Source: Torpedo marmorata (lineage: Eukaryota). Taken from it: a stretch of DNA of 64,000 nt. This document shows, piece by piece, positions 9,101 to 62,717 of this stretch. Position 1 is the stretch's first letter; every line of letters begins with the position of its first letter. The stretch covers positions 34,596,001 through 34,660,000 of the forward strand of contig OZ360222.1 in the NCBI GenBank assembly GCA_977017645.1, written 5' to 3'. Both the position numbers and the translations under genes were made by a program. The notes beneath the pieces were generated by a model. The model worked only from the letters and a program-made list of their open reading frames with translations, was not told where the DNA came from and searched no databases.

Positions 9101-12100
9101 CGACTCCTACTCCTTCCTTATGTTATGTTATGTTATGTACTGTCTGCCTGAATGAAGAATAGAGATCGCTGCAAGGGAGAGAAATGGAGTGATTACCTTA
9201 TTTAACTCTCCACTGATCTGGTTTGCTTCCACCACCATTGGTTTCACTCGGATGTAATCATAGAACACAGCAAGCACACTTGGGTCGACACTCCTGTTCC
9301 TACCCACGTGACCTGGTCAATGGATAGCAAGGAACTCATTAAAGCCTCAAAATTCATTGTTTAATAATCCATCAACGGGTGGCCTATGTGTCACTTTTAC
9401 CAGGTCTAAAGCAATAATTTACATTCATTCAAAACCAGTGAAGGAGGGTAGCCAATGACTGCAGTATTTAAAGTCCAAGTCAGATTGGTACATAGTCAGG
9501 GTCTGCAACCCAATAACTGTGTACAATGAATTGAAACACTATCTTGTAGTTGCCAAAAATACTGATACAGCCTGAAAATCATGTTTAAGTGCCAAAATCA
9601 TAGAATAAAAAAAAATTACAATACAGCTGACCAAAAATGAAGATGTCTATGTTACTCCCATTTCTCAGTCTTAAAAGTGCTCATCTAAACATGATAAGGG
9701 TTTCTATCTCCACCACCCTCTCAAATAGCATGTTCCAGAGCCCCACTATATTTTGGGTGAAAGATTTTCTTCAATTCCAATTCTTTCCTGATTGAAATTA
9801 AGCCGATGTCTCCATATTATTGATCCAAGAAAAACAAGTTACCCCCATCGACGCCTCCCACTGCCTGGGGAAAGCTGCCAATATATCGAAGAACCCATCC
9901 CATCCCCGCCACACTCTTCACCCCCTTGCAACACATTAATCTGCACTTTTGTTTCATTGTTTGCCCTACTTAAGTATGGGTTAATTTGCTTAGATAACTC
10001 GCAAAACACGGGACTGATAGGATTACCAGAAGAGTGAGTATGGACTCAATGGGCCAAATGGCCTACTGTGTAATAATAAATAAGAGGGTACCAAGGATTA
10101 ACCAAATAGTGTAGGACAGCAGTTTAGATCAGGAGCAGGTTATTTAGATTAACAAACACTAGTTGGTGGTTTAAGACAGTGCAAAAGCTCTCACAACAGT
10201 GTTTCCAATGCCAGCTCACACATCATCTGATTTATTAAGGTCACCATAACATTAGTAGAATTTGAACTCATTATCTCTGGGCTATATATAATTATATAAC
10301 ATTTCTATCAAGTGGATGTAATCAGAGTCTGGTCTAAAGATTATTAGACCTACAATTCTTCACATTGCTTACCCAGAGCTTCTCTGTCAAAGCCTTCAAC
10401 TGCTGCCAGCTCTGACTGGAAGAAATCATAATCATATTTGCTCAAGTCCTCATCATTGCATTCGCTTGGATATCCCACATAAAGATAAGTGCTGTTGGAT
10501 CCCAGAATAAGTCTGTCCTGAAACAAATGACACAAAAAAATTTCTTTTTTTACATTGTCTATATTTTCTGATTACAAAACGATTTACTCCCATCTGTACA
10601 GCTGGTGTAAGGCATCAGTGAACATTACAACATGAAAGCGTTAGGTGTTTGGTAGAATATCACAAGACAAATACCTTGCATTTCCACAATGGGAACACGC
10701 AGAGGATTTGTTCACCTAGAATTTTTAAATAAAAAAAAATTAAAGATACTGTTCCATCATTGCTTCAGGAGAAACATCTACCGGTAATTTTCTTTAAATT
10801 TGTTAATCTATTAGTTGCAAAGATATTGGAAATGAGAAAGAAGTCTGTTTGATCAGGCAGGGGACTTCAGATGCACCCTCTGTGTACAATTCATATTAAT
10901 TTATCTTCTTGTGGTTCTATTTGATCTCAGGATCTTGAATCCTATTTAGTCAGGAACAGGCTTAAATAATTTGATTGATGTATTACTGTGCTCAGTGAGA
11001 TGAATGCTGTGGTTTCTGAAAACACCTGTGCACAAGTGTACAGTTAAATGCAGAATATTTTGCAACACAAGACCCTAAGACATAGAGCAGAAGCAGGCTA
11101 TAGGCCTATCTAGTCTGCCCACTATTTAATCATGAGCTGATCCATTTTCCCACTCAGCCCCACTGCCCGGCCTTCTCCCCATAACCTTTGATGTCCTGGC
11201 TAATCAATATCCTATCAATCTCTGTTTTAAATACACCCAATAACTTGGCCTTCACAACCGCCTGTGCCAACAAATTCCACAGATTTACCACCCTCTGCCT
11301 AAAGAAATTTCTCCGCATCTCTGTTCTAAGCGGACACCCTTCAATCCTGAAGTTGTGCCCTCTTGTCCTCGACTCTCCCACCATGGGAAAGAACCTTTCT
11401 ACATCTACTTTGTCCATGCCTTTCAACATTCAAAATGTTTCAATGAAATCCCCCCTCATTCTCCTAAATTCCAACGAGTACAGGCCAAGAGCTGTCAAAA
11501 GCTCCTCAAATGATAACCATTTCATTCCCAGAATCATCCTTGTGACCATCCTCTGAACCCACTCCAATGTCAGCACATCCTTTCTTAAATGAGGAGCCCA
11601 AAACTGCTCACAATACTCGCAAGTGAGGTCTCACCAGAGCCTGAACATCACATTCCTGTTCTTATATTCTATTCCTCTTGAAATGAATGTCAGCAATGCA
11701 TTTGCCTTCTTCACCACCGACTCAACATGCAAGTTTACCTTCAGGCTATCCTGAACGAGGATTCCCAGGTTCCTTTGCAACTGGGTATTTTCAGTTTTCT
11801 CCCCATTTAGAAAATTGCCAGTTTATTTTTTCTGGCTTAATTCAGTGGAATGCCTCACGATGATAACTCTCTTTCTCAATCGAGCCATGCTTATATGGTG
11901 TTTGGTCAATTAAGTACAATTAGTGTTTCAGTACAAATTGTTTTATAATCAATTGAATGTTTTTCCAAGAATTCAATACCTTTTTCAATCAATTCCTTAT
12001 GAAATTCCTCAAAAATTCTTTAAGGATTTAAACAGTCCTTCCAAGTGAAGTCACATTTCACTTGTGAATCTGCAGGGGTCATCTACTACATCCGGTGATC

Positions 12101-18100: not shown

Positions 18101-21100
18101 ACACTGTGATTGTAGTAAAAGCACACAGAAATGCTGGAGGAACTCAACTGGTCTCGCAGCATCCATAGGAGGTAAAGATATATTACCGACGTTTCAGACC
18201 TGAGCCCTTCTTCAAGGTATACTTATATACCTTGAAGGGCTCAGACCCGAAACGTTGGTAATACCGTATATACTCGTGTAAAAGTAGAGGTTGTTTTTTT
18301 TTTTTAAAGACCATTTTTAACGTTAAATTTATGGGGTCAACTATTACATGAATACTACTTTTGACCACGGTAAGTACCTGCATTAATTCGAGGCATTGGG
18401 AGTTCCGATGAGTGGGTGGGTGGCGAGTCTGCGTTCGGGGCGTCGGGAGCTCCGATGGGCAGGCGGCTGGGTCCTAGGTGAGATTCCGCGGTCGAGGCGT
18501 CGGGAGCTCCGATGGACGGGTGGCCGGGGCCTAGGTGAGAGTCCGTGGTCGATGCGACGGGAGCTCCAATGGACGGGCGGCTGGGGCCTAGGTGAGAGTC
18601 AGCGGTCGAGGCGTCAGGAGCTCCAATGGGCGGGTGGGTGCTGGGGCCAAGGTGAGAGTCCGCGGTCGAGACGTCAGGAGATCCGATGGACTGGCGGCCG
18701 GGGCCAAAAATAGGAGGGTCGACTTTTATACAGTATTGACTTTTACACGAGTATGTACGGTACATCTTTACCTCCTATGGACGCTGTGAGACTGGCTGAG
18801 TTCCTCCAGCATTTACTGTGTGTTTTTACATTGGCCAACTCAGTCTTGAATCTCTGAATAGCCTCTGGAGCTCCTTGGGGGAAAATTTTCCAAAGATTCA
18901 CATACCTCTAAGAAAAGAAGATCCTCCTGATCTCCATTTTAAGTAGCTCAATGGACTGATCTCTGGAGCCAAGCAGTGAATATTGGTTTATTCTCCATTG
19001 CAGTACTGAGGAACAGGCACAGCGTCAGAAGTGCCATCAATCTGATGACAAGTCAAGACCCTATCTGCCTTGTTGACAGTGTAAAAAAATTTCCTGATAA
19101 CTATTCAAAATTCTTTCTGGCCAATATTTATCCCTCAACTAAAATCACAAAAAAAAAGATTTACTCATCATTGCATTCCCGAGACTGAGAACTAACTGAC
19201 ATGAGCTAAGAGTTAAGGGGCAGAGGTTTAGAGGTAACATGAGGGGGAACTTCTTTACTCAGAGAGTGGTAGCGGTGTGGAATGAGCTTCCGGGAGAAGT
19301 AGTGGCGGCAGAGTCAATTTTATTATTTAAGAAAACGTTGGACAAGTATATGGATGAGAAGGAAGTGGAGGGTTATGGGCAGGGTGCAGGTAGGTGGGAC
19401 TAGATAGGAATGTTTGGTTCGGTGCGGACTGGAAGGGCCTAATGGCCTGTTTCCGTGCTGTAATTGTTATATGGTTATATGGTTATAACAAATAGCTCAC
19501 ACTTAACTAGAACCACTTCAAAAGAACCTCAGTGGTAGTAAAGCACTTTGGAATGGAAAAGTCAGATTTAAAAATGTGAGCAAATTTTCTCAATTCTTTC
19601 CCAATAAAACTCCCCGATAGTGTTACCTTTCAGCATAACGTAACGTTGAGAGAGTTTCTTCGTAACAAATATCAGCTGGACTGACTGTTGCAATCTGTAA
19701 GAGAATTCATGATTCATTTTGAAAGCTGCACTCATCAAGTGGAGGGAATGGTAGTGTGAGAATGGATCACTGATGATAACATTAATCAGTCCAAGTGGGG
19801 TGGATACAAAGTGGTTGTCTGCCAATGGATAAAGAGGATAAAGGATAAAAGTTCTGTTTTTCTTACCCAAGTGAATAACTCAACATTTATCCTTGTCACA
19901 TGTTTGTGTACACTTAATATGTCTAAATTCTCCTGAAGTCTCTTTGTATCCACCTCACAACCTCAGTTGGAACTTTTACCTTCAGTTCTCCTAGCGAAAT
20001 TATTGCTATGTATTGTGAGTAGCTGTGGCGAGTCACTCATCACCACTTGCCACCCTGGAAAAGATCCATATTTCCTTCTCTCGGGGCCCTGCCTGACAAC
20101 CAATTTTCAATTTATGCCGTACACAAAAGTGCTGGAGAAACCCAGCATCTATAGGAAGCAAAGGGTAACCAACGTTTCAGGCCTGAGCCCTTCATCAAGG
20201 TATGAGCAAAAAGCAGGCAGGTACAGAGTTACAGGGAGAGAACAGTTAGTACGGAGCAAAAGCAAGTTTATTTTATTTATGTAAGATACCCTCAATGTTG
20301 AAGACAAGTGAAGGGCCAGTACTACATAAAAGACACTGTTTGACCTGCTGAGTTTCTCCAGCATTTGTGTTTTTTACTTTAAGCAAACCCTTTCAGCTCA
20401 CTGCAGATCGCAAAGTCTGCCCATTACCAGTAACACTCCGTTTCACTACATTAAATATCAAGTTACATTTGTTGACTTTAAAAACTTTTTAATTGAATTA
20501 CCGGTATTAAAGATTTTTAAAATTACAATTTAAAAAAATTAGAAAGCATTAGAAACAACTGTTTTTCACATCCAATGCATACAAACTCACAGGTTAGATA
20601 CAGGGAATGTCCTTTCAACCCCAGCCCTCCGCTCTACCATTTTATAAGATTGGAGCTGATCTGTTTGGAACTCCGAATCCCATCTCCTCACTTATCAAGT
20701 ATCTATCTACTTCTGCGTTAAAATGTTTAAGAGCTCTACCTCTGATGCCATTTAGGAGAGAACTCTAAAGACTCAACCTGTTGAGAGAATTTTTTTAAAA
20801 ATCACTTCATCTCTGTTTTAAATAGGCAAGATCTTTTCAAACGGTGATCCCTCATTCTAAGTTTTCCCACACAAAGAAATTTCCTGTCAGTGTCCATGCT
20901 TCCATTATTCCTCAGGGTTTTACATGTATCATTCAAGTTAAATCAAAGTCTTAACTCCAGCAGATGCCAACCTTTCTCATTAGACAACCTACCTATTTCA
21001 GTTATTAATCACATAAACCTTTTCAAAATTGTTTCCAACACATTAACATCCTTCCTTAAAGCAGGCCAATACTGAACAGAGTACTCCAGTGGTGATCTCG

Positions 21101-24100: not shown

Positions 24101-27100
24101 GCGCATAGTTGGGGTTAAGTTTAGAGTTAAGTAAGATTTTATATTATTAATAAAAATTATTGTTTTGAAGATACCATTGTCTTGGTGAATTTCTATTGCT
24201 GCTGGTCTATGACGTAACACACCTGATGACATTTCCCAGAGTGGTCAGGCTGAGATTGATGGCAGTTCCCTCTCTCAGACGATCCCCCTCAGAACCCGAG
24301 GACTTTTGACGCTCACTGCCAGCCAGATCCACCAGGTTTATGTTCGACTGTTTGGTTAGGTGGTCTTTTAAAAACACCTGTGTGGAAGCACATTGAATAA
24401 AAGCAGGCAGATCTGTCAGTTATAAAGTCCAACTAGCTTTCTTGATCACTTTTAAAAAAAAAGTTTTGGTGACTGTTGGCCTGTGCACCTCCTCATGCCC
24501 CTTCTTCCCTCTTCTCCTCTCTCCCACCCCCACCTTTTTATTCAAGCACCTGTATGCTTTTGCTCATACCTTGATAAAGGGCTCAGGCCCGAAACGTTGG
24601 GCCTGCTGAGTTTCTCCAGCACTTTTGTGTATTGCACAACTATTTTTTTTGTAAGTGAGCTTCAATAAATAATCAATAAACTCATGATGTTATTTAGCAG
24701 ATATTTTAAAATAAACAATATTAACGATACTTCACAGTAACTTGGAACACAGCAGTGCGCGAGTCCTTGAAATTGGTCACCTCTGATACTTCTCTATAAC
24801 ATAGAACACTACAGCACCATACAGGCCCTTCGGCCCTCTATGTTGTGCCGACCCATATGTTCCTTAAAGAAAGAGTACTAAACCCACCCTACCCCGTAAC
24901 CCTCTGTTTTTCTTTCATCCATGTGCCTGTCTAAGAGTCTCTTAAATGCCCCCAATGTTTCAGCCTCCACCACCATCCCTGGCAATGCATTCCAGGCACC
25001 CACAACTCTGTGTAAAAAAAATAAACTTACCCCTGATATCTCCCCTAAACTTCCCTCCCTTCACTTTGTACACATGTCCTCTGGTGTTTGCTGATCCTGC
25101 CCTGGGAAACAGGTGCTGGCTGTCCACCCTATCTATGCCTCTCATAATCTTGTGGACCTCTATCAAGTCTCCTCATCCTTCTGCGCTCCAAAGAGAAATG
25201 TCCCAGTTCTACTAACCTTGCCTCATAAGACTTGTTTTTCAATCCAGGTAACATCCTGGTAAATCTCCTCTGCACCCTCTCCATAGCTTCCACATCCTTC
25301 CTATAATGAGGTGACCAGAACTGAACACAATACTCTAAGTGTGGTCTTACCAGAGATTTGTAGAGTTGCAACATGACCTCTCTACTCCTGAACTCAATCC
25401 CCCTTTTAATGAAGCCCAGCATCCCATAGGCCTTCTTAACTATCCTATCAACCTGTGCGGCGACCTTGAGGGATGTATGGATTTGAACCCCAAGGTCCCT
25501 CTGTTCATCCACACTCTTAAGTAACCGACCATTAACCCTGTACTCAGCCTTCTGGTTTGTCCTTCCAAAATGCATCACCTCACACTTATCCGGATTGAAC
25601 TCCATCTGCCACTTTTCTGCCCAACTCTGCATCCTGTCTATATCCTCTTGTAACCTTCGACAACCTTCAGCTCCATCCACAACTCCTCCAACCTTCGTGT
25701 CATCCGCAAACTTACTGACCCATCCGTCCGCCTCTTCATCTAGGTCATTTATAAAAATCACAAAGAGCAGGGGTCCCAGAACAGATCCTTGCGGCACTCC
25801 ACTAGTCATCGACCTCCAGGCAGAATACTTTCCTTCCACTACGACTCTCTGCTTTCTTCCTGCAAGCCAATTTTTTTTCCACACAGCCAAGGTTCCACTG
25901 ATCCCATGCCTCATGACTTTGTGGATGAGTCTCTCGTGGGAGACCTTGTCAAATGCCTTGCTAAAATCCATGTCGACCACATCTACCGCCCTACCCTCAT
26001 CAATTTCTTTTGTTACCTCCTCAAAAAACTCAATTAGGCTCGTGAGGCACGACCTTCCCTTCACAAAGCCATGCTGACTATCTTTGAGTAGACTGTACTT
26101 CTCCAAATGCTCAGAGATCCTATCCTGAAGAATCCTCTCCAATAGTTTGCACACCACTGACGTAAGACTAATTCCCAGGATTCTCCCTATTACCTTTTTT
26201 AAACAAGGGGACTACATTTGCCATTCTACAATCCTCCGGCACCTCCCCTGCAGCCAAAGAGGATTCAGAGATCATAGCTACTGCCCCAGCTATCTCTTCT
26301 CTCACTTCCCACAGCAACCTGGGGTATATCGCATCCGGCCCCGGGGACTTATCAATCTTGATGTTTTTAAGAAGATCCAACACTTCCTGTTCCTTAATCT
26401 CCACATTGTCCAGCACACAAGGCCTGTTCTATTTAGACCTCACCCTGATCAAGGTCTTTTTCTCTTGTGAATACTGAAGTAAAGTATTCATTTAGGACCT
26501 CCCCAACCTCTTCCGCCTCCAGGCACATGTTGCCTCCTTTATCCTTTAGCGGCCCCACCTTCATTCTCGTCATCCTTCTGTTCTTCACATACACATAGAA
26601 TGCCTTGGGGTTCTCCTTCATCCTACATGCCAAGGCCTTCTCATGCTCCCTTCGAGCTCTCCTAAGTCCTTTCTTAAGCTCCTTCCTGGCAACCATATAT
26701 TTCTCATGAGCCCTTCCTGTTTCCTGCTTCCTATATCTAACATATGCTTCCTTCTTCCTCTTGATTAGTTGCCTCACCTGTTTTGTCAGCCACGGTTCCC
26801 TTTTCCGACCATCCTTTCCTTGTCCCAGTGGGACAAACCTATCCTGAACCCAGCACAAGTGGTCCCTAAACCTCCTCCACATTACTTCTGTGCTTTCACC
26901 CTTGAACATGTTTCCAATTTACTCTCGCTAGTTCCTGCCTCATCCCTTCATAATTAGCCCTTCCCCAGTTAAGCGCTTTCCCATTTTGTCTGTTTTTATC
27001 CTTTTCCATATGTTGAAGCTCAGGGAGTTGTGGCCACTCTCACCAAAAAGCTTCGCCACCGAGAGGTCCGCCACCTGACCAGGTTCATTACCCAGAACTA

Positions 27101-30100
27101 GATCCAGTATGGCCTCTCCTCTTGTCGGCCAGTCCACATACTGTCATGAATCCTTCCTGAACACACCTGACAAACTCAGCCCCTTCCATCCCTCTTGCAG
27201 TCAATATTAGGGAAGTTGAAGTCACCCATAACTACAACCCTGTATTTCCCGCACCATTCCAAAATCTGCCTGCTTATCTGCTCCTCGGTGTCCCGAGGGC
27301 TATTTGGGGCTCTATAGACTACTCCCAGCACAGTGATAGCTCCCTTCCTATTTCTGACTTCCACCCAGTGGACACTCCCTCTGCAGCGTCCTCCCTTTCC
27401 ATAGCCATGACACTATCCCTGACCAGTAATGCTACTCCCCTCTCTCCTTTTCTACCTCTCTTCCTATTCCTTTTAAAACACCTAAACCCTAAACTGCATC
27501 AGCCCTTCCTCCAGCCAAGTTTCAGTAAGGACCACAACTTCATAGTTCTACGTACTGATCGATGCTCTAAGTTCATCCCCTTTATTCCTAATACTCCTAG
27601 CGTTGAAATAGACACATTTCAACCCCTGTAACTGGCTACATTTATGTTTTGTCCCCCGCCTGTCCTTCCTCACCAACTCAGAACACATATCATCATCCTT
27701 TTGTCCTTCTATCCTAATTTCTGCACTCACATTCTGATTCCCACCCCCCCTGCCAAACTAGTTTAAACCCTCCCCAACAGCTCGAGCAAACCTGCCCTTT
27801 AGGATATTGGTCCCTTTCCAGTTCAGGTGCGGCCCATCCTTTTTGTACAAGTCAGACCTTCCCCAGAAGAGATCCCAATGATCCAGAAATCTGAACCCCT
27901 GCCCCCACTCTTCAGCCACGCATTCATCTGCCACAATTTCCTGTTCCTACCCTCTCTGGCGCATGGCACAGGCAACAATCCCGAGATTACCACCCTTGAG
28001 GTCCTGCTTTTTAACTTCTTTCCTAACTCCCTATACTCCCTCTTCAGGACCTCATCCCTACTCTTATCTATGTCATTGGTCCCCACGTGGAGCACGACAT
28101 CTGGCTGCTCACCCTCCCCCTCCAGAATGCTATGAACTCGATCAGAGACATCCCTGACCCTGGCACCTGGGAGGCAACATACCATCCGGGAGCTCCGATC
28201 TCGTTCACCAAACCGCCTATCTGCTTTCCTAACCAATGAGTCCCCAATTACTATTGCTCTCCTCTTCTCCCCCCTTCCCACCTGAGCCGTGGGGCCAGCC
28301 TCTGTGCCAGAGACGTGACCACCCCGACTGGTCCCTGGTAGATCGTCCCCCCCAACAGTATCGAAAACAGTATACTTGTTGTTGAGGGGAACGGCCACAG
28401 GGGTGCTCTACACTGTCTGCCTCTTCCCCTTCCCTCTCCTAACAGTCACCCAGTTACCTGTCTCCTGACTTTTAGGGGTGACTGTCTCCCTGAAGCTCCT
28501 CTCTATCACTGCCTCTGCCTCCTGAATTCATCCAGCTCCCGCTCCTTAACAGTCTCCCAGGAGCTGCAGCTGGATGCACCTCTTGCAGGTGTAGTCATCA
28601 GGGACAATTGTGTTGTCCTAGATTTCCCACATCCTGCAATCGGAGCATTCGACTGCCCAGCTGCTGACTCCATTAACTCTTCCTAATTAAATTCAAAGAT
28701 CTTACCTTAGTGGAATCAAGCTCGTCCGAAGCCTCGTGAGCCAAAGTCCCACTCCTACACTGGCTGCTCTCCACTGGCCGCTCTGCTTGAGCTACTCCTC
28801 ATTTTACTTGTCACTACCCCTTGTTAATTACTACTCCCACCAATCACCGTCTGTTTAACCCTTAACGTGCTTTTTAAAGGCACTCACCTCCAGCTGACTC
28901 CCGACAGTCCCAGCTCTCTCGAGTCCCACACTCCTCATAATGGTCCCGAGATGTATAAGTGGAGTATTGGATAAAAATGCCTTTATTTTGATGGCAAGAT
29001 CTGGATTCTGTCAATCATCTGTTCTCTACAGGATTGATTATTCCATAGTTCCATTATGGTCTTTTTTTAAATATTTATTGTATTAGTTTAGTGATTTTGG
29101 TAATATTGATTTTGAGCTAAGTATTGACCAGAACACCATGGGAAGTTCAACTGCTCTGCTTTCAGGAGCGAGGTGGGGGCTCTTAATTCACATACTTGCA
29201 ATGGAATTTAACTCCATAGTCTTCTGACTCAGGAGGCAAGAGTGTCATCATGAATCCATGGCTGACATCAAAAGCTTTCAAACCATGACTGCAGGGCTTG
29301 AGTTGTAAGGAGAGGCCAGAAAGGCTGGGACTTTACTCCCTGCAGCATAAGAGGCTGAGGGGGGAACTTTATAGAGGTTTATAAAATCATGAGGGGAATA
29401 TAGAAGGAGAATAGTCACAATATTTTCCCCAGAATAGGAGAGTCTAAAGCTAGAGGGCATTGAAGGTGGAAAGATTTAAAATGGTTCTATAGATAGAGTA
29501 AATGCAAGTAGTCTTTTTCCACTTAGGTTAGGTGAGATACCAACCAAAGGACATGGGTTAAGGGTGAAAGGGGAAAGTTTAGGGGGAACATTCAGAGGAA
29601 CTTCTTCACACAGAGAGTAGTGGGAGTGTGGAACGAGCTGCCAGCTGAAGTGGTGAATGCGGGCTAATTTTCACATTTAACAAAAATGTGGACAGGTAAA
29701 TGGATGGGAGGGCTATGGACTGGGTGCAGGTCAGTGGCACTAGGCAGAATAATAGTTTGGCGCAGACTAGAAGGGCCGAAGGGCTTGTTTTCTGTGCTGT
29801 AATGTTTTATGTTCTGTGGTTCTATGGACTTGGAGCAGCTCATATGGAGGGTGGAGGGATATGGAATCAGCTGCCAGAGGAAATGGTAGAGGCAGGTACC
29901 ATTACAAGGTTTAAAAGACATTTGGACAGGTACATGGATAGGAAAGGGTTGGAAGGATATGGGCCAAATGCAGGCAAATGGGACTAGGTTAAATGGGCAA
30001 CTTGGTCAGCCTGGATGAGTTGGGCTGAAGGGGCTGTTTCTGTGTTGTACAGCTCTATGACTCTATAAACCAGCCATTCTCAACCAGGGGCCATACAGCC

Positions 30101-42368: not shown

Positions 42369-43271
42369 AAAAAAAATAGAACATTACAGCACAGGCCATT
42401 CGGCCCATGACGTTGTGCTCACCTATATTGAAAGTTACATGAATGATAATAAACATGGACAAAGAGAATAAGAGGAATCCACTGTAATAAGAAATGTCAG
42501 CAATCTTTTTATTTTTTAAAATTTGCCTGGCTTACCAGTATTTGCTGAGCTATCTCAGTTTGTTGTGTGATTTGTAGCAGCACGGCAAGCATATCTTGAT
42601 GAAACAAAAGAAACATGATACAAGCTTTGTGACAAAAGTAAATAACGTGATGCAGCATCACGTGACATAAATTTAGTATGTTACAAAGATACCGGGGCAA
42701 GATTTCAAAAGTTGGCACTTGGCTATCTTAAGGGAACTGAAAAGCCTTTGCTTCAGAGGAAAAGTATCCTCAATACAAAATATTTTCCACCCCTCATTTA
42801 AAATTAATTGAAGATGGAATCGCCTGCTTCTGCTCCCATAGGGACCATTTGTTCCTGTATCCAAAGTAATTACCGGTAGTTTTAGTTGGATGAATATTGG
42901 AAACTGTACAAAATATCTGCCATTTTAGAAGCACTGGATCCAAACAGATTTGAAGCAATGATTATCGATGGAATCAGCTTACTAAACTGGAGGCAATTCT
43001 CTACATATTTAGTAGAGAGATAGGATACACAAGATTAAATGCCAATTATAACTGGTTCTCTTTTAACTAAACTGAATGATGTATGGCAGCTTAAGATAGC
43101 TAAGAAACACTTTGAACTTTGCATCAGATTATTGACAATCTTATAGTGTCTAAAATAATCATAAAAACAAACTTTAAAGGTGTTTAACTGCATATACGGT
43201 ACCATTTACCCCATTGGTAAAATGTTCCATCACAAAAATGGAAAAAACATATCAAACTGCCAAGTATACAT

Positions 43272-43800: not shown

Positions 43801-46800
43801 CTGTCAAGACAAAAGCAACACAAGGCAGTTTTACTATCAGCAAGAGAAACGATAAGGCCCAGTGTCTCTCGTCTGACTGCACAGACCTGCAAGCGCCACC
43901 CTTCCTGTCCCTGCAAATATAAACTACCTGGGACTCTTCTTCACTCGAAGTCTTGTGGTTCTGCGTCTGGTACGTATTTTCTCCTCTGGTTTACTTTTCT
44001 CCTCTTCCCCTTTTCTAACCTCTTTTATTTTTGGCACGTCATCCTTCAAAATATCCAAATCCTGAAGCACACAAAATTATTTAATTGGTCTCAACTTTAA
44101 GTAAAAGTACATCAGAAACATCTACAAACCCAGCAAACTTCTTGCCCTTTCTCGTTAAAAGTCAATTAATCAATATCAATGATAGTTTTTGCTGGGTATA
44201 AAATAATGGGCAGTGAAAATAAATTAAATGAGGTAACTCATATGCATAAGATGCTTGCCGAGCATACAAGTCAGCAATGAAAAACATGAAGCCCAAAAGC
44301 CCAAAGGCAATTCCTTCAGTGCATACTTGCCCAACCTACTCGTTTACCCAGAAAATTGCCATTAGCCTCACTGATTATTTTTCTTCCCCACCGTTTAATA
44401 TAATTTTATTAAATTAGATATTAAAATGTTATTCATTAACCCTTTTTCACTACCTGCAAGGGTGTTTTGTTGGGTCTTCTTCCAGATCTTGTTAGAGGAG
44501 TAGAAAAAATAAACTCCGGCTGCTGCACAGTGGGATCTTGTAACGTGGTCTTTTCAACTATTAACGATAAAATTGGAAACAAAATTCTTTAATGGATCAA
44601 TGACCCATTGAAAATGCAAATACATTTAACAATATTGATAAGCTCTGAAAATCTCAAAACAATTAACACACATGAAAAGCTCAATTTCAAAATCTCACGA
44701 AGCACATATCCAAAAGGTGTTATGTGAAAATCTTGTACAGTAATGGGACATGTTAAAGTCTTGGTTTCTTTATAACAAGACTTGGAAAATTAGACTCAGT
44801 GCTATATTTTTACCCCCACTCACTAATGTGCGCAAGAATTGTAGCAAAGTTTCATCAGGTGTATTGGCCTGTGATCTAAATGCAGGAAAGGTAATTGGTT
44901 GTTATAAAATTACATGTGGACTATCATCCCTTACTATATTTCAAAGATGGAAAACAAAATACTGCAGATGCTTGAATCGGAACTATTTCCATAAATGCTG
45001 GAACTACTGATGCAGACAAGTTTCCTTGATCTTTGCAGGTTCCAAGCAACAAGAACCAAATATTAAGGAATTAAGAGCAAAAATTAAAAATCCTGAATTT
45101 TATGTTAATTTTATTTCTTGGTCATACAAATAAGATGCTGTCCTTAGGCATTGATGTTAAAGGCAATAATGCTTACTTGCAAATTTTGGATGAGGATAAG
45201 CAAGGCGACACAAAATAAGCAAGGCGACACAATGTCGAATAAACCCAGAACATTATAGCAACACAGTGAACTATTGCCCGTGGGTACCATTGAGAGAACA
45301 TGCATTAGTACCGTGCACTGCTAAATAATGTCTGTAAATCAACAGAACACAGTTCTTCATTATAATTTACGGCCATGGTGCCCATTTGATGCATGAACAA
45401 AATAGCCAAAACAGATGTGCTTACAATGCTTCAAAAGAAATTAGAATATGAATAATTTAAGATTTTGAGACAATAATTACCTTTTGACTTTCTTGAAGAT
45501 CTTGTGAGAGGAGGAGAGAAAGCATAAGAATCCTCTTCTGCTAAAATGATCGCATGTGATTCTGAATCTTTGCCAGGTTTTCTCCTGGTTGGTTTATGGG
45601 TGAAAGTTACTGTAAGCTGTTCCTCTTGCCTATCATCCACAATATTAGCTTTGACCTTGGACTTTGGTGTTCCTTTGCTTGTGACAGGCTGCCCCCTTCT
45701 TGTCATCTCGGCTTTAACAGGCAAGGTGATCTCCACATTTGAAGTCAATTCTGCAATATTTTCTAGTGCCACAAGGTGGGCATCTTTGGCCCTACTTCTT
45801 GTAAGTCTGCTGGGTGTTGGCACCACAGGTATGTGCTCGTTAATCTCCAGCACTGAAATGGGATTGTTGAGCAGAGCATCAACTTCAGAAAGTTTCCTTT
45901 TTTTTTGCCTGGAAGACCGCTGAGAAATAGAAGAAACTTCTGGTTGCCGGCTTGGTGTTTTCAAAGAGTTGTCCAAGACGTGTTCTGCATCTGCTCTAAC
46001 AGCAACACCTTTTCTCTTAGATCTCAAGACAGGCATATTGGTATCAAGCAAATTGGTTTCTGTGTTATGTGGTCTGTGAGTGATTGTTTTTCTAGTAGAT
46101 CTTGGAGAGGTATGGATAGAGTTGGATTTTTGATCAAGTGGCATCCCTTTCTGCTCCTCCAAACTATTTTTCACAACTTCATTTATCCCTGTAACAATTC
46201 TTCTGGTACTCCTCCTTGGTTTTGCAGGCATTTCTGTTGTTGGTTTAACTTTCTGTATTTCCACAAATACCAGTTCCTCATGATCCAAGGAACTGATTTC
46301 ACCCACTTTATTCCTATTTCCTCTAAAGGACCTTGTTGACATTGCCATAGTCTCCATTTGCTTCGCATGCATAACGTTTCTATTAGCATCCTCAACCTCG
46401 TCCGTTTTTGTTTCCTTTATTGCATCTCCCTTATACAAGCCACTTCTCTGCTTTGTTATTATTCCACTATCTACCTGCACAGGCAACTTGACCAATTCAG
46501 ACAACTTTTCACCTTGAAGGACTGCCGCTGAATCATCCGTGGATCGACCCCCTTCAAGGACCTCCGCTGAATCATCCGTGGATCGACCCCCTTCAAGGAC
46601 TGCCGCGGAATCATCCATGGATTGACCCCCTTTAAGGACCTCCGTTGAATTATCTGTTGATTGACCCCCTTTAAGGACCTCTGTTGATTTATCTGTTGAT
46701 TGACCCCCTTTAAGGACCTCTGTTGAATTATCTATTGATTGACTCCCTGTAAGGACCTCCGTTGAATTATCTGTTGATTGACCCCCCGTCAGGACCTCCG

Positions 46801-49800
46801 TTGAATTATCTGTTGATTGACCCCCTTTAAGGACCTCCGTTGAATTATCTGTTGATTGACCCCCTTTAAGGACCTCAATTGAATTATCTGTTGATTGACC
46901 CCCTTTAAGGACCTCCGTTGAATTATCTGTTGATTGACCCCCTTTAAGGACCTCCATTGAATTATCTGTTGATTGACCCCCTTTAAGGACCTCAATTGAA
47001 TTATCTGTTGATTGACCCCCTTTAAGGACCTCCGTTGAATTATCTGTTGATTGACCCCCTTTAAGGACCTCCGTTGAATTATCTGTTGATTGACCCCCTT
47101 TAAGGACCTCAATTGAATTACCGGTATCTGTTAATTGACCCCCTTTAAGGACCTCCGTTGAATTATCTGTTGATTGACCCCCTTTAAGGACCTCAATTGA
47201 ATTACCGGTATCTGTTGATTGACCCCCTTTAAGGACCTCCGTTGAATTATCTGTTGATTGACCCCCTTTAAGGACCTCAATTGAATTACCGGTATCTGTT
47301 GATTGACCCCCTTTAAGGACCTCTGTTGAATTATCTGTTGATTGACCCTCCTCAACAGCCTCCATTGAATTTGTGATGCCTACTCTAATTGGATCAGGCA
47401 CACAAAATACTGAATCAGCAACCTTACGTTCATCTTCCAATTGTTGAAGAACAAAAGAATTGTGCTTTGTACGAAGTTGTTCTTCATTTTCAAAAACATT
47501 ATTCTCTGGAGTCTTTTTAATGGATTCACTCATTTTAGTTTCCAGTGAGTCTAACAGAATTGTTTCCCCATTGTTCACCAAAGCAGGCTTTTGATTCATC
47601 TCTGTAGGCATTTGCTGTTCCATAGCTTCATCCCCATCACCATCTTCCAATACTAAAGTGAAGTTGTCTTCAATATTATGGTATTCTGTGACCAGAACTT
47701 CATCCCTTTCAGCCTCGCTCAAAACTTTAGCTTTGTCATTGGATTGGTCTGGAAGATCAAAGTCACATTCATCAGCATGCATAACTGTTTTAAATACAAC
47801 TGGTTCATGCAGTTTCAGCTCTATGGACACCACAGAGCAAGACTCTTCTCCTCGAGCATCAACTTCAAATCCTTCATTGACATCCTGTAATCATAAAAAG
47901 ATATTTGCTGTAGTTATAGAAGTCATTCTTTTAAGCACATGTCGACACAGCATGCATAATGCACTGTTTAAAGAAGAATTTGTAATCTATTTTAAATACT
48001 CCTACACAAATGGATAACAAATTTGAAAATAATGCTATATTACCCATTTATGTTATTTTTCTCAATGAACATTGCTACCTTCATTGACAGATAAAAGCGG
48101 TTTTCAAAATAGGAAAGATTAATTGATAGATTTGTCCTCAGCAAGAACTCTGTAAACATATTCTCTCAAAAAGCTTCATTTTGGTATTTGCCTGAAATTG
48201 CTTCAAATGAGGTGGAAAACGATTACAAGGAAATGCAAAAAGGGGAAGTTGAAATCAAACCTCAAAAGGGTAGATACACTAATTTGAGGTGATTTCAGGA
48301 AATCCTTAGCACAAAGTTTTCACCTTGTGAACACATTTTATGGTTAAGGCAATGCAGGAAAACAGTAGAACAACTTAAAATTTTAGTCCCATGATTTACA
48401 GCATAGATCTGATCAAAATAAATGAGGGATTATGCTGAATGGTTGGGCTGAAGGGCATCACTCAATGAAAAGCCCAATATCAATTTTTTTTTAAAATCAC
48501 AAATATTTGTATTAATTTTGTCCTCATTTCACTTTAAATCCTTACACTTCAAAAGCCACAATCATGGTGGAAGCTAATCTGAAAAGTAAATGGGATTGCT
48601 ACCTGTACATGAATGGAAATAGTTATTTGGTAGCAATGTGTTCAGATGTTATTTTAGGAGCATCATGTCATAAAAATGGTCCTAGAAGTAGTTACAATCT
48701 TGTAAACCTACAAACATTAAAGAGCAAAGGATGGAAAGCTTTCACAGCAGAATATAGGACACAGTTATAATTTGTTCAGAAGTTGTTCCTTTATGCTAAT
48801 CAGGGTTCCATGTCACCAAAACTGTAAAACTGGCTACTGTGTCTTTGATGTGAACCTTCAATAATCCAGAAATACAAACTCCAAGACAAAAGACAATTAA
48901 AAATACAGTTGCATGACAGCCGAGTAGAAAGTGATTTTTGAAGTAATTTGAGGACAACATTTTTTGCTAAATTAATGAGAAGCAGGTTGTGTATTTACAC
49001 AAATTGGAAGTAAGAAAATATATTTTGTAGCACCATTCTAATGAGAACTGGAGAGTGTTGTTCATATTACCTGTAAAAACTGAGTATTTACTGGAATTGA
49101 AACTGCTACTGACTCATCCTGTGTGCATTCAGCAATATCGTCCACCATTTTAACATCACTTCCTTCATATCCTGATAATGCTAATTCCATTTTCTCATTT
49201 CTTGTCTCTGTTTCAGTAATGTCCTTATTGTCAACTATGATCAAAGCTGGCAAAGAAATAAAGAGAAAAAAAATTACCAATTTTATTTTCCTTGTATTTA
49301 AATATAAAATAAAAAAGGTATTATATCAATCTTGTTTTTAGAGGAGCACAGAGAAGCATTAAACAGTTTTGTTTATTCTCCACATTAGTCGACCATATGA
49401 TTCAATATGTCAAACAGAGCCCTTTATAAATGTAGACTGTTGAGAAGTCTTCTACCTTCACAATTCCCACAGAACCCCTTCATTCCACCATTCAAAACAA
49501 AATTGCATGCTGTTTCAATATTTCTATGTGTCAAGGAGAGAAAAATATAGCACACATCTTTTCTCCATCTTTTATTATGGATAACCTTTGAAGTTCTAAA
49601 TTAAGGAATTAAATAAAAATCACTGCAAGGACATTCAAAGGCACAAATGATGGATTGAGAAAAAGGAACCTCCAATTACAACCTTTTGTAACCAAAGTTC
49701 AGATCTTTTCCTTTCAACTGGTAAACCAGTTGATATTTCATTTTTTAAATTTAATTTAGACATACAGCACACGGTGATAGGCTATTTCGGCCCACGAGCC

Positions 49801-52800
49801 CATGCTGCCCAATTACACCCAATTAACCTACAACCCCCAGTACGTTTCGAACGGTGGGAGGAAACCGGAGCCCCCGGGGAAAACCCATACAGACACAGGG
49901 AGAACATACAAACTCCTCACAGACAGCGCGGGATTCATACCCCGGTCCCGATTGCTGGCGCTGTAACAGCGTTGCGCTAACCGTGCCGCCCGAGCTGCAA
50001 TCAGGAACTATATGGAAATTCACATTATACATGTTTTATGGTGGCTTCTGGTTAATCCCTTGAGAATGTCTCATCATTCAATGTTAATCTGATTCAATCC
50101 CATATCACCACCTCAATTCTGCATCCTTAATGTTTTACCCAACATTAAAGTATTAGTGAAACAAAAAAGTCTGCAGACGCTGTGATTGTAGTAAAAACGC
50201 AAAAATGCTGGAGGAACTCAGCAGGTCTCGCAGCATCCATGGGAGGTAAAGATAATATAACCAACGTTTCGTGCTGAGCCCTTCGTCAATGTATGAGCAA
50301 AAAGCAGGCAGGAGCCTGAATAAAATAATGGGGGGGAGGAGGGAAGAAGAGGCAGGGGGAGGAGTACCATCAGTCTTAGTCTTGATATTTCCACCTATCT
50401 CACCTGAAAATTTGGTTTCAGCAACTACCCAGCTCCCATTTGAAAGTTATAATCCATATTCTCAGCCCTGTCAAAGGAAATAATTTCTTTCCACCCAATC
50501 AATTTTCATCATATTTTTAAAAAACAGATCAATTAGATGACCTCTTGCTCTTCTATGCTCAAAGGTCTACAACACACAAAAGTGCTGGAGAAACTCAGCA
50601 GGTCATGCAGCATCTATAGGAAGTAAAGGGTAAGCAACGTTTCAGGCCTGAGCCCTTCGTTAAGGTGTGAGAATAAAGCAAGCAGGCACCTGAATAAAAA
50701 ATGTAGGGGGAGGAGCGGAAGCAGGGGGAGGAGTACAGGCTAGCAGGCAAGAGGTCATAGGTAGATATGGGTGGGAGGGTAGAAGAGAAAAAAAGATGGG
50801 AAGTGATAGGGGAAGGGGTAGCTCTCTGAATGGAGAGGGCAGGAGGTGGGGAGCTGGTGCAAAGGGGACAGAGGGATAGGGATAGAAAAAGACGGGGGAG
50901 TGGTTTAACAGAAAATGGAGAAGTCGATGTTAATGCTGTCTGGTTGGAGAATGCCCAGACGGAATATTAGGCATTGTTCCTCCAATATGCGAGTAGCCTC
51001 GGTTTGGCAGTGCATGAGGCCATGAATAGACATGTCGGTGTAGGAATGGTGTGTGGAATTAAAATGGCTTGCCACTTGGAAATTTGCCTTCATACCAAAA
51101 GTGGTTCTCCAAGTAGGGTGCAACCACAGCTCAAAAACCTGTATCACTACTCTTACCCAGCTAGTGGAGACATTGCCACATCACGTTTAATGGAATTTTA
51201 AAGCAATTATAAAGATGTGGGGTTTTGACTTTTGGTCTTAGTGTCAAACACTGAAATAACAATCATTCTCATGTCTCGAAATCAAGATACTGAAAAATCT
51301 GCACTTGCAAATGCTTTTGATCAATTCAACTTGGGCATTTCCTCTTAATTCAGTTTTAAAAGCACCTTGGTTTTTTTGGGTGGAGTGGGAAAAGGAAGCC
51401 AAAAATGAGTGCACTTCGTTTTGACAGCTGAAAGGCTCATTAAATTTAGGGATATGCAGAGTCCAGAATTGGCGAAGTACACTTGTAAAAAATATGGTCA
51501 GGTAAGACCATAGAAAAAGTGCAAAGAATTTAAAAATTGATGTATTGCTTAATTGGGCACTAGTGTGGATCAGCAATCACAAAGGCAATAGATGTATGAG
51601 GCAGTGCAATTTGAAGCATAGGCAGTGGCGTTTTGGACAACCTCAAGAACAGAACTTCAGCAACATGGTGACAAAATGCACCAATAACATTTTTGTTTGC
51701 CCACGCACAACCAACATAACCCTCAAACCAGGATTTTTATATTTAAGCAATGAACAATACTTTGAACTTGGGAGAAAATGGAAGAGAGGAGGATAAATAA
51801 ATTAAAATTGGGCTTTAGAGGTATTGACAACAGACATTCCTTCTACAGCAGGAAAAGTTATACTATGCTGAACATATTGTTTGATTAGCTTTACAACAAG
51901 CAAGGAGAAAAGCTCTGGATTCCCAAAATGCAGGTACATTCAGCACATTTATATACTGGGTAGAACTGTGACTGAAGGATGACTAATGTCACCCAGAGAA
52001 ACAGCTATTAAAATGGATTATATGTTTGTAATTGTACTTGCAGTCATTCAATATTTAGAATGGCAACTAAAATTGACTGTCATTAATGGCAATTGTTTTA
52101 AACTTGTATTAAACGGTTAGCACAATGCTGTTACAGCGCCAGCGATCGGGATTCAAATCCCGCGCTGTAAGGAGTTTGAACGTTCTCCCCGTGTCTGCGT
52201 GGGTTTTCCCCAGGGCTCCAGTTTCCTCCCACCGTTCGAAACGTACCGGGGGTGTAGGTCAATCCGGTGTAAATTGGGCAGCATGGGCTCGTGGGCCTGT
52301 TACCGTGCTGTATGTCTAAATTTAATTTTTTTTTTTTTAAATTAAAATTTTAAATTTGGTTTAAATGGCTTGTTGTACATGAAATATATGCAAAGTGGAT
52401 GTTGTCCAAGGATAACCCTTTGATTCCTGGGGAAAATGTAGTCGTCTTTCTGCACGAAAGATTGTTTTAAGAGCAAATATAATTTAAAGGAACAAAGAAA
52501 GCAGAGTTTTAGGATTAGTTTTGACATGCTTAAGTAGTAGGTGGCATAAACATTTGTCAAAAGGCCTCCTGCTGTGTGATATGTTGAAAAGATGTTTCTG
52601 ACGATAACTGCATCTATTTCCCTCAATTTTATGCTAAAATGACAAAATTGTCAAGTTATCTAGATAGTGACTAGCACACATACACACATGTAACAAAATT
52701 AATTAAAGGAAGTTGACTGTTGTATTATGAGCTTACGTAACAATCATCACCTTTCTGAAATGATGTAAATACTATAAAGAAGAAAATGCTTATAATAATA

Positions 52801-55800: not shown

Positions 55801-58800
55801 TTTTAATTCCACAAACCATCCCCACACCAACATGTCCATCCATGGCCTTGTTCACTGCCAAACTGAGGAACAACACCTAATATTTCATCTGGGCACTCTC
55901 CAGACAGCATGAACATTTACTTGTCCAGTTTCTGTTACACCCCTCCCCCAAATTTCTCTCTTTCCCAATCCCTCTGTCTCCTTTCCTCCAGCTCCCCAAA
56001 CCTATCCCTTCCCTCTCCCCCATCACTTTCTTCTCCCCTCTTCTACCCTCCCACATATCTCCACCTGTTTGCCTGTGCTCCTCCCCTTGCCCCTTCCTCC
56101 CTCCTCTCCTCATCTTTTTATTCAGGCACCTGGCTGCTTTTTGCTCATGCCTTGATGAAGGGCTCAGGCCTGATACATTGGTTACCCTTCACTTTTGTGT
56201 ATTGCAGATTATAAATTCTATTACTTTTGCTCAGCATATAATGATTATGAAAGACTAGACCGTACTAAGTATTTTTTGAAAGCTACTCTATGTAGAATTT
56301 ATGAAATGGCTGCAGAGTTATCAAGGAAGGGGGAAAAAAATCAATAGGCAAGCTCCCTTCATAAGTGTCTCCATGACCAGAATTTCATAACATTGCATTC
56401 AACCAATTTCCAATAACAGCAGGCACCTCAGTACAGAGCTCAGCAAGATGGTCACAACTTTTACTTTTGAAAGTGCTCAAATGGATGCCACAAAACTATT
56501 TGGGCCCCCATCAATCTCCCCAATCACCCTCAAAAACTAACTTTAGAAAGAAAGAGAATGGAAAGGGAGATAAAGTGGTCAAGGGACAACATATTCATTA
56601 CTCTTGCAACCCCTTTCAAATATAGAACGCCGCAGAAGCATTCAGTAAAATTTCACCTTGGCATTCACCTTTTTCTGGTTTAGTCCAACACAGTTTGTGT
56701 TCATAATGAACACTACATCTTGTTGACATAGTTGCTGAGAAGTTTAAAAATCACAATAAAATCACCTAGTTGAATAACTAGAGACATTCCAGAATCTGCA
56801 TTCCTTCTCTACAATGCTCAGGCTAAAAATCTTATTAAATTTATAACATACATTTGTACTCCCACCTCAGCCCCGAACATGGTTACTAATCTACCATGAC
56901 TATAAATGATAATTTAGAAACACATTTCAGAAATGAACTCAATACTCATTTCAGAATAGATCAGTACCATGCCACAATAAGAACACTAAAGGTATGAACC
57001 ACTGCTCAAATAACTACCGGTAGTTTGTTGACCTTTTCACCAGGTACATTAACCTAATGGTTTACAGCTACTTCCTTTCAAAAGGATCATTCCTTTTGTT
57101 TAAAAACATTATCTAAGTTAATTCTGATACACAAGCATCACACTTTTTCCATGTACCCCAAATACACCAATTAACCTACAAGCCCCATACATTTTTTTGA
57201 AGAATGGAAGGAAACCGGAGAACCCGAAGGAAATTCATGCAGACACGGAGAGAACATACAAACTCCTTGCAGACAGCGCCGGATTTGAGCCAGGGTTGCT
57301 GGTGCTGTAACAGCTTTGTGCTAACCGCTACGCTTTGAGAGGGGAAGGTCATGCCTCACGAGCCTAATTGAGTTGTTTGAGGAAGTAACAAAAGAAATTG
57401 ATGAAGGTAGGGCGGTAGATGTGGTTTGTATGGATTTTAGTGAGGCATTTGACAAGGTCCCCCATGAGAGACTCATTCAGAAAGTCCTGAGGCATGGGAA
57501 CCATGGAGCCATGGCCGTGTGGATTCAGAATTGGCTTGCCTGACGGAAAGTATTCTGCCTGGAGGTCAGTGACTAGTGGAGTTCCGCAGGGAGTTGTACT
57601 GGCTCTATGTGATTTTTATAAATGACCGAAATGAAGTGGAAGGATGGGTCAGCAAGTTTGTGGATGATACGAAGGTTGGAGGAGTTGTGGATAGTTTGAA
57701 GGTTGCTGTAGGTTACAAAAGATATAGACAGGATACACAGTTTGGTGGAAAAGTGGCAGATGGAGTTCAATCCTGAAAAGTGTGAGGTGATGCATTTTGG
57801 AAGGTCAAACCTGAAGGCTGAGTACAGGGTTGGATACTTAACAGTGTGGAAGAACAGAGGGACCTTGGGGTTCAAATCCATACATCTCTCAGGTTGCCAC
57901 ACAGGTTGATAGGAGAGTTAAGGTCTATGGGATGCGGGGCTTCATTAGTTGGGGGATTGAGTTCAAGAGGTCATGTTGCAGCTCTACAAAACTCTGATGA
58001 GACCACACTTAGAATATCGTGTTCAGTTCTGGTTACCTCATTATAGGAAGGGTTGGAAGCTATGGAGAGGGTGCAGAGGATATTTACCAGTATATTGCCT
58101 AGATTGGAAAATAAGTCTTATGAGGCAAGGTGAGCAGAGCTAGGGTTTTTCTCTTTGGAGCGTGGGGGGATGAGAGATGACTTAATAAGGTCAAGGGGCA
58201 GGAGTAGCAAACACCAGAGGACATCTGTACAAAGTGAAGGGAGAAAAGTTTAGGAGATACATTAGGGGCGTTTTTTAAATTTTTATTTAAAATAGAGTTG
58301 TGGGTGCCTGGAATGCCTTGCCAGGGGTGGTGGTGGAGGCTGGAATATTAGGGGCATTAAAGAGACTCCTAGACAGGCACATGGATGAAAGAAAAATAGA
58401 GGGTTATGAGGTAGGGAGGGTTTAGTTTTTATTTTGGTAGGAATATGTAGGTCGGCACAATATTAAGGGCCTGTACTGTGGTGTTCTCTGTTCTAACCGT
58501 GCCGCCCATTTTGACACAATATTCACTCAGCCTGTTACAAAATTTATAATAACGAACAAGATTATGAACACTGATTAAAAAATATTGTAAACACAAGAAA
58601 CAGGAGGAGGAGTCACCCATCTGGTCTGTTGAACCTGCTCTCCCATTCAATAAGATCACAGCTGATCTGACCATGGACTCCGCCCCACGTACTTTCGTCT
58701 TTAATTCAAAAATGTTTCTGAGTTTTAAATATATTTAATAAGTTAGCCTCCACTGCTTCGCCGAGCAGAGAATTCCACAGATTCACTATTTGCTGGAGGA

Positions 58801-60971: not shown

Positions 60972-62717
60972 ATAACCATATAACAATTACAGCACAGAAA
61001 CAGACCAGTTTGGCCCTTCGAGTCCATGCCGAACACCTTCTCCCACCTCGTCCCACAGACCCGCACCCAGCCCATAACCCTCCACACCTCTCTCGTCCAT
61101 ATACCTATCCAACTTTTCCTTAAACATTAAAATTGAACCTGCATCTACCACTTTGTCCGGAAGCTCGTTCCACCCTCCCACCACCCTCTGAGTGAAGAAA
61201 TCCCCCCTCATGTTTCCTCTAAACTTTTCCCCCTTCAATCTCAATCCATGCCCTCTTGTTTGAATCTTCCCCACTCTCAATGGAAAAAGCCTGTCCACAT
61301 TGACTCTATCTGTCCCCTTCATAATTTTAAATACCTCTATCAAATCACCCCTCAACCTTCTACGCTCCAGGGAATAAAGTCCCAGCCTGCTCAACCTTTC
61401 CCTGTAACTCAAACCCAGAAACCCAGGCAACATTCTTGTAAATCTCCTCTGCACTCTCTCTATTCTGTTTATATCCTTCCTATAATTCGGCGACCAAAAC
61501 TGCACACAATATTCCAAATTTGGCCTCACCAATGCCTTATACAACTTCAACATGACATCCCAACTCCTGTATTCAATACTCTGATTTATGAAGGCCAACA
61601 TACCAAATGCTTTCTTCACCACCCTATCTACGTGTGACTCAACTTTCAGGGAATTATGTACCAGAATTCCTAAATCCCTCTGTTCTACTGCACTCCTCAA
61701 TTGTCTACCATTTAACATGTATGACCTTTGCTGATTAGTCCTACCAAAATGTAGCACCTCACATTTATCAGTATTAAACTCCATCTGCCATGTTTCAGCC
61801 CACTCTTCTAACTGTCCTATATCCCCCTGCAAGCTTTGATAACCCTCTTCACTGTCCACAACACCACCAATCTTCGTATCATCTGCATACTTACTAATCC
61901 AATTTACCACCCTATCATCTAGATCATTAATATATATGACAAACAACAATGGACCCAGTACCGATCCCTGAGGCACTCCACTAGTCACCAGCCTCCAATT
62001 TGACAATTTTCCACCACTACTCTCTAGCATCTCCTATCCAACCATTGTTGAATCCATTTCACTACTTCGTCGTTAATACCTAATGCTTGAACCTTCCTAA
62101 CTAGCCTCTTATGCGGAACCTTGACAAATGCCTTACTAAAGTCCACATAGACAACGTCCACAGCCTTCCCCTCGTCAACCTTCTTAATAACCTCATCGAA
62201 AAACTCTGATATTTGTTAAACATGATCTACCACGAACAAAACCGTGTTGACTACTCCTAATCAATGCTTGTCTTTCCAAATAACTGTATACACCATCTCT
62301 AATAACACTCTCCATTAATTTACCCACCACCGATGTCAGACTCACAGGCCTATAATTTCCAGGTTTACTTTGGAGCCCTTCTTAAACAGCGGGACAACAT
62401 GAGCTACCCTCCAATCCTCCGGCACCTCCCCCGTGGCCAGTGACATTTTAAATATTTCTGTCAGAGCCCCCACTATTTGTACACTAACCTCCCTCAGGGT
62501 CCTTGGAAATATCCTGTCAGGACCTGGAGATTTATCCACCTTTATACTCTTTAAAATAGCCAATACTAACTCCTCATTAATCTTTATATTATCCATGACC
62601 TCACTACCAGATTTCCTTACTTCACCTGGCTCAATATTCCTTTCCTTTGTAAATATTGAAGAAAAAAATTCATTTAAAATTTCCCCCATCTCCTCTGACT
62701 TCTCACATAGCCTACCC
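60972..62717 (-). mobile_element. 5'-truncated CR1 LINE (RT domain plus 3' UTR, GGTTATAT-type tail)
   Basis: 347-aa ORF with [27 protein letters not shown]. Confidence 0.92.

Follow-up and report, generated by a model that had tools for sequence, protein, structure and literature searches.

Excision of Tc1/mariner transposons leaves footprints in which a few of the element's terminal bases stand between duplicated TAs, a product of end-joining after cut-and-paste excision (PMC6943129, PMC13148408, PMC9976928). The transposases of this group make their cuts a few bases within the element and produce 3′ overhangs, and after end-joining the first or last 2 to 4 nt remain between the TAs (PMC6943129); for Tc1, these overhangs are 2 nt long and non-complementary (PMC4490562). 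Scars on record are TACAGTA or TACTGTA for Sleeping Beauty and 0 to 4 bp for Passer (PMC6943129, PMC9976928). The typical somatic scar of Tc1 is "+4," given without its letters in the passage that reports it (PMC13148408). The relevant parts of PMC3072357, PMC2874221, and PMC7325037 hold general statements only. Genomes rarely record excision, which is half of the life of a DNA transposon.

Footprints of 6 nt that keep the reading frame have been described in plants. Maize sh2-Rev6 is one such case. Other in-frame 6-nt footprint alleles are known in potato, e.g., StCDF1.7 (PMC12420743). For Stowaway elements in Triticeae introns, TA-flanked scars with fragments of both inverted repeats were inferred phylogenetically (PMC1925063).

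Here we describe a 6-bp insert in a coding tandem repeat of the electric ray Torpedo marmorata. The window that we analyzed is a stretch of 64,000 nucleotides (contig OZ360222.1, positions 34,596,001 to 34,660,000), and all coordinates below are positions within it. Like the Tc1/mariner footprints, the insert consists of a duplicated TA around a few bases, and judged from its letters it works like such a footprint, with four of the seven features that we listed for the class. Unlike the canonical Sleeping Beauty scar, which adds 5 bp, it adds 6 bp and keeps the frame. Unlike the scars recovered in Tc1/mariner assays, it holds bases that would come from both ends of an element (or from a CG-paired overlap of the two ends), and it is inherited and apparently fixed. 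For potato StCDF1.7, both the occupied allele and a phenotype are known, whereas in the present case, from a vertebrate, no occupied allele was seen and the putative scar has been multiplied by a coding repeat. The Stowaway scars are intronic, from plants, and come with occupied orthologous sites for comparison, whereas the present one is exonic. Our literature search, which covered few older or subscription papers, turned up neither a natural footprint kept in frame in an exon of a vertebrate nor a footprint of Tc2 or other CCG-ended elements.

Results

The insert lies in the ELYS gene.

Nine ELYS exon matches lie on the minus strand of the window in collinear order. Among them is a large C-terminal coding exon at 45481..47884 (minus strand; splice ends predicted, with AG and GT at the ends), which falls within an open reading frame of 819 codons (45431-47890, minus strand). 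Its counterpart, found by tblastn and blastp, is residues ~1532 to 2344 of ELYS from Narcine bancroftii (P0002), with 83% identity. A search for longer proteins gave 17 matches, each of the ELYS type, all from cartilaginous fish and all with the domains PF13934 and PF16687 (17/17); N. bancroftii was the best, which would place the animal among electric rays close to Narcine. No relatives of the exon protein of near length or shorter were found in the protein searches. By orthology and exon order, the gene is identified from its sequence as ELYS/AHCTF1.

The open reading frame encloses a tandem array that corresponds to approximately residues 1700 to 2000 of N. bancroftii ELYS. The C-terminal region around it has been described as unstructured (bioRxiv 2021.11.10.468004). 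Mouse ELYS nulls die at E3.5 to E5.5, and the gene is essential in the mouse (bioRxiv 386607). Two other features of the gene were seen. Near the start of the exon (window ~47750 to 47780), there is a four-residue gain relative to N. bancroftii (ADECDFDLP versus VD----DLP), and an ELYS intron contains inverted repeat copies at 49747-49984 and 52113-52328 that are 2.2 kb apart and 84 to 100% complementary in blocks.

Three 45-bp units descend from one event.

The array occupies 46512..47348 on the minus strand and has about 21 units of 39 bp (TRF period 39, 21.0 copies), each encoding 13 amino acids of the GGQSTDNSTEVLK type; the mean pairwise difference among 18 units is 5.3%. Three units are 45 bp long (47087-47131, 47171-47215, and 47255-47299), and the unit list and the deletion test place TACCGGTA in them at 47119..47126, 47203..47210, and 47287..47294, respectively. 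Each 45-bp unit adjoins a 39-bp unit, which gives a higher-order period of 84 bp. The sequence-only reading of this DNA had noted a change from TA to TACCGGTA, adding Thr-Gly, at these three places with 84-bp spacing, and the unit list and the open frame confirm it. The frame is intact across TACCGGTA; D-N becomes D-T-G-N, and the protein unit GGQSTDNSxEVLK becomes GGQSTDTGNSIEVLK.

All three 45-bp units are of the Ile variant of the repeat. We compared units by exact deletion tests because the gaps that MAFFT placed there were misplaced. Removing TACCGG, ACCGGT, or CCGGTA (three equivalent placements) from unit 47171 gives exactly unit 46853. This unit (46853..46891, minus strand) and a second Ile-variant unit (46970..47008, minus strand), both 39 bp long, equal the 45-bp units minus 6 bp and have a single TA where the latter have a duplicated TA. 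Since the 45-bp units match the two 39-bp Ile units but for 6 bp, one event was copied three times, and the empty site was kept in the same array. Thus, TACCGGTA arose in the array once rather than three times.

The 45-bp unit is derived.

At the protein level, neither DTGN nor TGNS occurs in any of the 17 cartilaginous-fish ELYS orthologues. By pattern, D-N units number 20 in N. bancroftii and 10 and 9 in two skates. Had the 45-bp unit been ancestral and the 39-bp units arisen by deletion, the excision history would have failed; the D-N state of N. bancroftii and of both skates, together with the absence of DTGN, points the other way, and by these protein sequences the 45-bp (D-T-G-N) unit is derived and the 39-bp state older. 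Because the comparison is at the protein level and the arrays turn over, the event is not precisely dated by it. Anchors delimited the repeat region in 7 of the 17 orthologues, and the number of repeats ranges from about 1 (the sawshark Pristiophorus) through a few (Pristis, Mobula) and about ten (the two skates) to more than 20 (N. bancroftii). A scan of 11 of the 17 orthologues for private two-residue insertions gave three (TT, TT, and GG); none was TG, YR, or PV.

The repeat itself (residues ~1670 to 2020, P0002 to P0009) has expanded separately in batoid lineages, with D-N units in electric rays and skates and T-N-S units in stingrays. Hemitrygon has 11 T-N-S units, and Mobula, Hypanus, and Pristis have 2 or 3.

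TACCGGTA is in excess in the window.

Outside the array, TACCGGTA occurs four times in the window, always in non-coding DNA: at 10779..10786 and 20499..20506 in unique DNA, at 42871..42878 about 720 bp past the ELYS stop codon, and at 57015..57022 in an ELYS intron. All four are candidate scars. In the 63 kb of this one window outside the array, the expectation is 0.16 to 0.27 under Markov models of orders 1 to 4, an excess of about 20-fold. The order 5 expectation is 0.99 because order 5 learns the sites themselves. The Poisson probability is 4.6e-5, or ~0.012 after allowing for 256 palindromes, and the word had been named in advance. Among the 256 palindromic 8-mers, TACCGGTA ranks first; among all 32,896 words it ranks 38th, and those ahead of it are homopolymers, AT-rich words, and apparent repeat-family words. 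None of 1,000 dinucleotide shuffles reached four copies. The remaining 15 words of the form N-ACCGGT-N have two counted occurrences in total, so the TA flanks matter, and no other word among the 16 of the form TA-NN-nn-TA comes close in count.

In the window there was no excess of one-mismatch neighbors, of the CpG-decayed TACCAGTA class (3 versus 1.7), or of the 5-bp class TACCGTA (2 outside the ends of the MITE described below). One TACCGTA, at 4845-4851, is followed by ATT and would fit a 5-bp scar with the flank motif given next, in a class that shows no excess. Self-BLAST of the four non-coding sites showed unique flanks and no repeat family that would give an empty consensus.

At 5 of 5 independent sites, the presumed empty TA is preceded by AAY or followed by RTT, versus 365 of the 3,801 TA sites (9.6%), a motif that was drawn post hoc. 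The repeat unit has two TA dinucleotides, and the insert occupies the one with the AAY/RTT flank. Passer, an element of the pogo family, prefers AAGTACTT, which the flank resembles (PMC9976928). The 20499 site and the first exon copy have 17 identical bases in common, flanks included (20491-20507 and 47111-47127); this may reflect an extended target preference or chance.

Two non-coding sites were compared with relatives. Contigs of 4 of the 11 runs listed aligned to 10400-20900, and we read them by the lengths of the pieces and the distances between them. The run X1 (~1.3% diverged) spans 10779 without a gap and 20499 without a net gap. X2 (~5% diverged) spans 10779 without a net gap and has one substitution inside the word. 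X4 (~8% diverged) has a letter at 10781, which an empty allele would lack provided that gaps are skipped in the depth column. These alignments show that both words are real; one of them, at least, is old. No empty or element-occupied allele was seen at 10779 or 20499 in the relatives' contigs, and no 6-bp indel lay there among the 12 of 120 indels listed; 40 of 906 substitutions were likewise listed. The one 6-bp deletion among the listed indels, at 14403, is an unrelated local duplication. A genome-wide excess of TACCGGTA and an association of the word with 6-bp indels had both been expected from the sequence alone. The first held in this window (4 versus 0.16 to 0.27); for the second, two of the four non-coding positions were compared, with no sign of an empty allele among the indels listed.

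A CCG-ended, TA-flanked MITE is present in the window.

A MITE at 18264-18760 (18262..18762 with its TA duplication) lies inside a SINE and was delimited by its arms, TRF, alignment, and a match to an Anolis family. The arms are 24 nt long and 96% complementary, and the element starts with CCG, ends with CGG, and is flanked by TA. Aligned with an inverted copy of the interrupted SINE, it appears as a gap of 499 columns, which is 497 bp plus one extra TA (the aligner had set the gap 12 columns too early). The suggestion that this element begins with CC, ends with GG, and targets TA was therefore borne out by its CCG and CGG ends and the TA duplication relative to the SINE copy. The two SINE copies (18125-18820) are arranged head to head, inverted and 23 bp apart, with one arm split by the MITE, and the minisatellite within the MITE is GC-rich, with 4.9 copies of 57 bp.

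The short inverted repeats starting with CCG and the TA duplication are the Tc2-related pattern. In the parts of PMC3014272 that concern them, Anolis TcMar-N4_AC and TcMar-N6_AC and Xenopus DNA5_Xt are like the MITE in their TA duplication, inverted repeats of 23 to 25 bp, and lengths of 400 to 660 bp. The end of the MITE agrees with TcMar-N6_AC at 18 of 20 letters, and TcMar-N4_AC, the sister of N6, is called similar to the Tc2-related DNA5_Xt (PMC3014272). No excision scar of the Tc2-related Anolis families is described there, and the word "footprint" is absent from its text. The MITE has one copy in the window, and the flank of this one element (GGTAA-TA-CATCT) misses the AAY/RTT motif. A Pfam scan of the 15 open reading frames in the window found no transposase. 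The MITE is evidence that this genome has TA-targeting elements with CCG ends, and of nothing more.

Other repeats were noted. The stretch 43187-43201, some 390 bp beyond the ELYS stop, closes with ATATACGG-TA and looks like a solo right end of a Tc2-type element; no partner end was seen. LINE remnants with reverse-transcriptase reading frames (PF00078) lie at 25129-28407 and 60987-62033, and an SGNH/GDSL-like reading frame (27803-28407) lies upstream of the first LINE reverse-transcriptase frame.

Discussion

In our reading, to which we give a probability of about 78%, a CCG-ended Tc2-type element was excised from the exon and left the insert as a single scar, which spread along with the 84-bp dimer and is likely neutral. 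The idea that an element went into and out of this exon, leaving 6 bp that preserved the frame and were then copied to three, came from the sequence-only reading; the sister units, the derived state, and the 8-mer excess support it. In the history that we propose, a TA-targeting CCG...CGG transposon (of the Tc2 group, pogo-like Tc1/mariner) would have entered the AAT-TA of one Ile-variant ELYS unit in the germline and duplicated the TA. Later excision and end-joining would have left TA-CCGG-TA. The ends could have been joined in one of two ways. Two 2-nt overhangs may have been joined as CC plus GG, or 3-nt CCG overhangs may have paired through their self-complementary CG tips, with one base filled in on each strand. 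The latter route would make a 6-bp scar likelier than a mismatched 5-bp one, which would agree with the 5-bp class not being in excess. The scar would have added Thr-Gly and restored the frame, and the scarred unit would then have been carried along as the array grew as an 84-bp dimer (39 plus 45) by slippage or unequal exchange. The inner bases of the insert match the terminal bases of a TA-targeting element in the same genome, the MITE. Counting against this history are the two non-coding sites compared, at which no empty or occupied allele was seen, the flank of the MITE, which misses the motif, and the lack of a transposase among the 15 open reading frames. In addition, before excision the element would have knocked out a gene that is essential in the mouse, and such an allele had to survive in heterozygotes.

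Small insertions are most often short tandem duplications, and the array is prone to slippage. One unit could have gained a second copy of a Thr-Asp codon pair (6 bp) by slippage, with two later base changes that happened to make the palindrome. Only two places separate the insert from the adjoining 6 bp, MAFFT aligns it in this way, and the exon core agrees with 2 of the 4 bases after the TA. However, such 2/4 likeness on either flank is found at 1,199 of the 3,801 TA sites and so carries no signal. Slippage would also have to be followed by two particular changes inside these 6 bp, with the remaining 39 bp left equal to the sister units, and it leaves unexplained the four other copies of TACCGGTA, whose flank likeness is at most 1/4. 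We consider this origin unlikely. A transposon-independent repair or hairpin process (templated end-joining or quasi-palindrome correction) could instead have written CCGG into palindromic TA sites of AT-rich sequence, both within the exon and outside it. The sites are palindromic including their flanks, templated inserts at breaks are known in worms (PMC4490562), and the relatives' contigs showed no occupied site at the two positions compared. But there is no CCGG template in the array or within 440 bp, and the excess is limited to one core of the 16 TA-NN-nn-TA words, the one that equals the ends of an element in the window, which makes a process of this kind quite improbable in our judgment.

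It could also be that nothing was inserted and excised at all: the non-coding 8-mers would then be old conserved words or chance, and the exon variant either an assembly or consensus artifact of a collapsed repeat or an ancestral 45-bp unit. The array is known from the assembly alone, and one non-coding site is common to runs that are 5% and probably 8% diverged. Against this combination stand three perfectly periodic copies in an open frame, none of 17 orthologues with the 45-bp unit, non-coding sites that are also present in an independent run, and a probability of 4.6e-5 (~0.012 over 256 palindromes) for the excess. We regard it as very improbable indeed.

On the excision reading, the change to ELYS is probably neutral, in a tolerant repeat whose unit number ranges from about 1 (sawshark) to more than 20 (electric rays). 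A 6-bp scar keeps any frame and encodes TG, YR, or PV according to phase. A wider proposal, which we make tentatively and consider doubtful as it stands, is that the paired CG tips of CCG-ended Tc2 elements yield a 6-bp scar as the dominant product, with no shift of the frame in any case. Electric rays would then carry scars on the order of one every 16 kb, and these would be a concealed source of Thr-Gly, Tyr-Arg, or Pro-Val insertions in proteins; elements would pass through essential exons; the ELYS repeat would be the first visible coding case; and the scars would form a countable record of excision in a vertebrate germline.

The ELYS scar would be a neat yet probably harmless instance of a known process, and the wider claim of a frame-neutral scar is testable. 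In the coding copy, the letters of a transposon end would have become protein sequence and been multiplied by a tandem repeat. If the proposal is true, past excisions in a vertebrate could be counted from a fixed and recognizable 6-bp scar, and the frequency with which elements pass into and out of exons without permanent damage could be tested.
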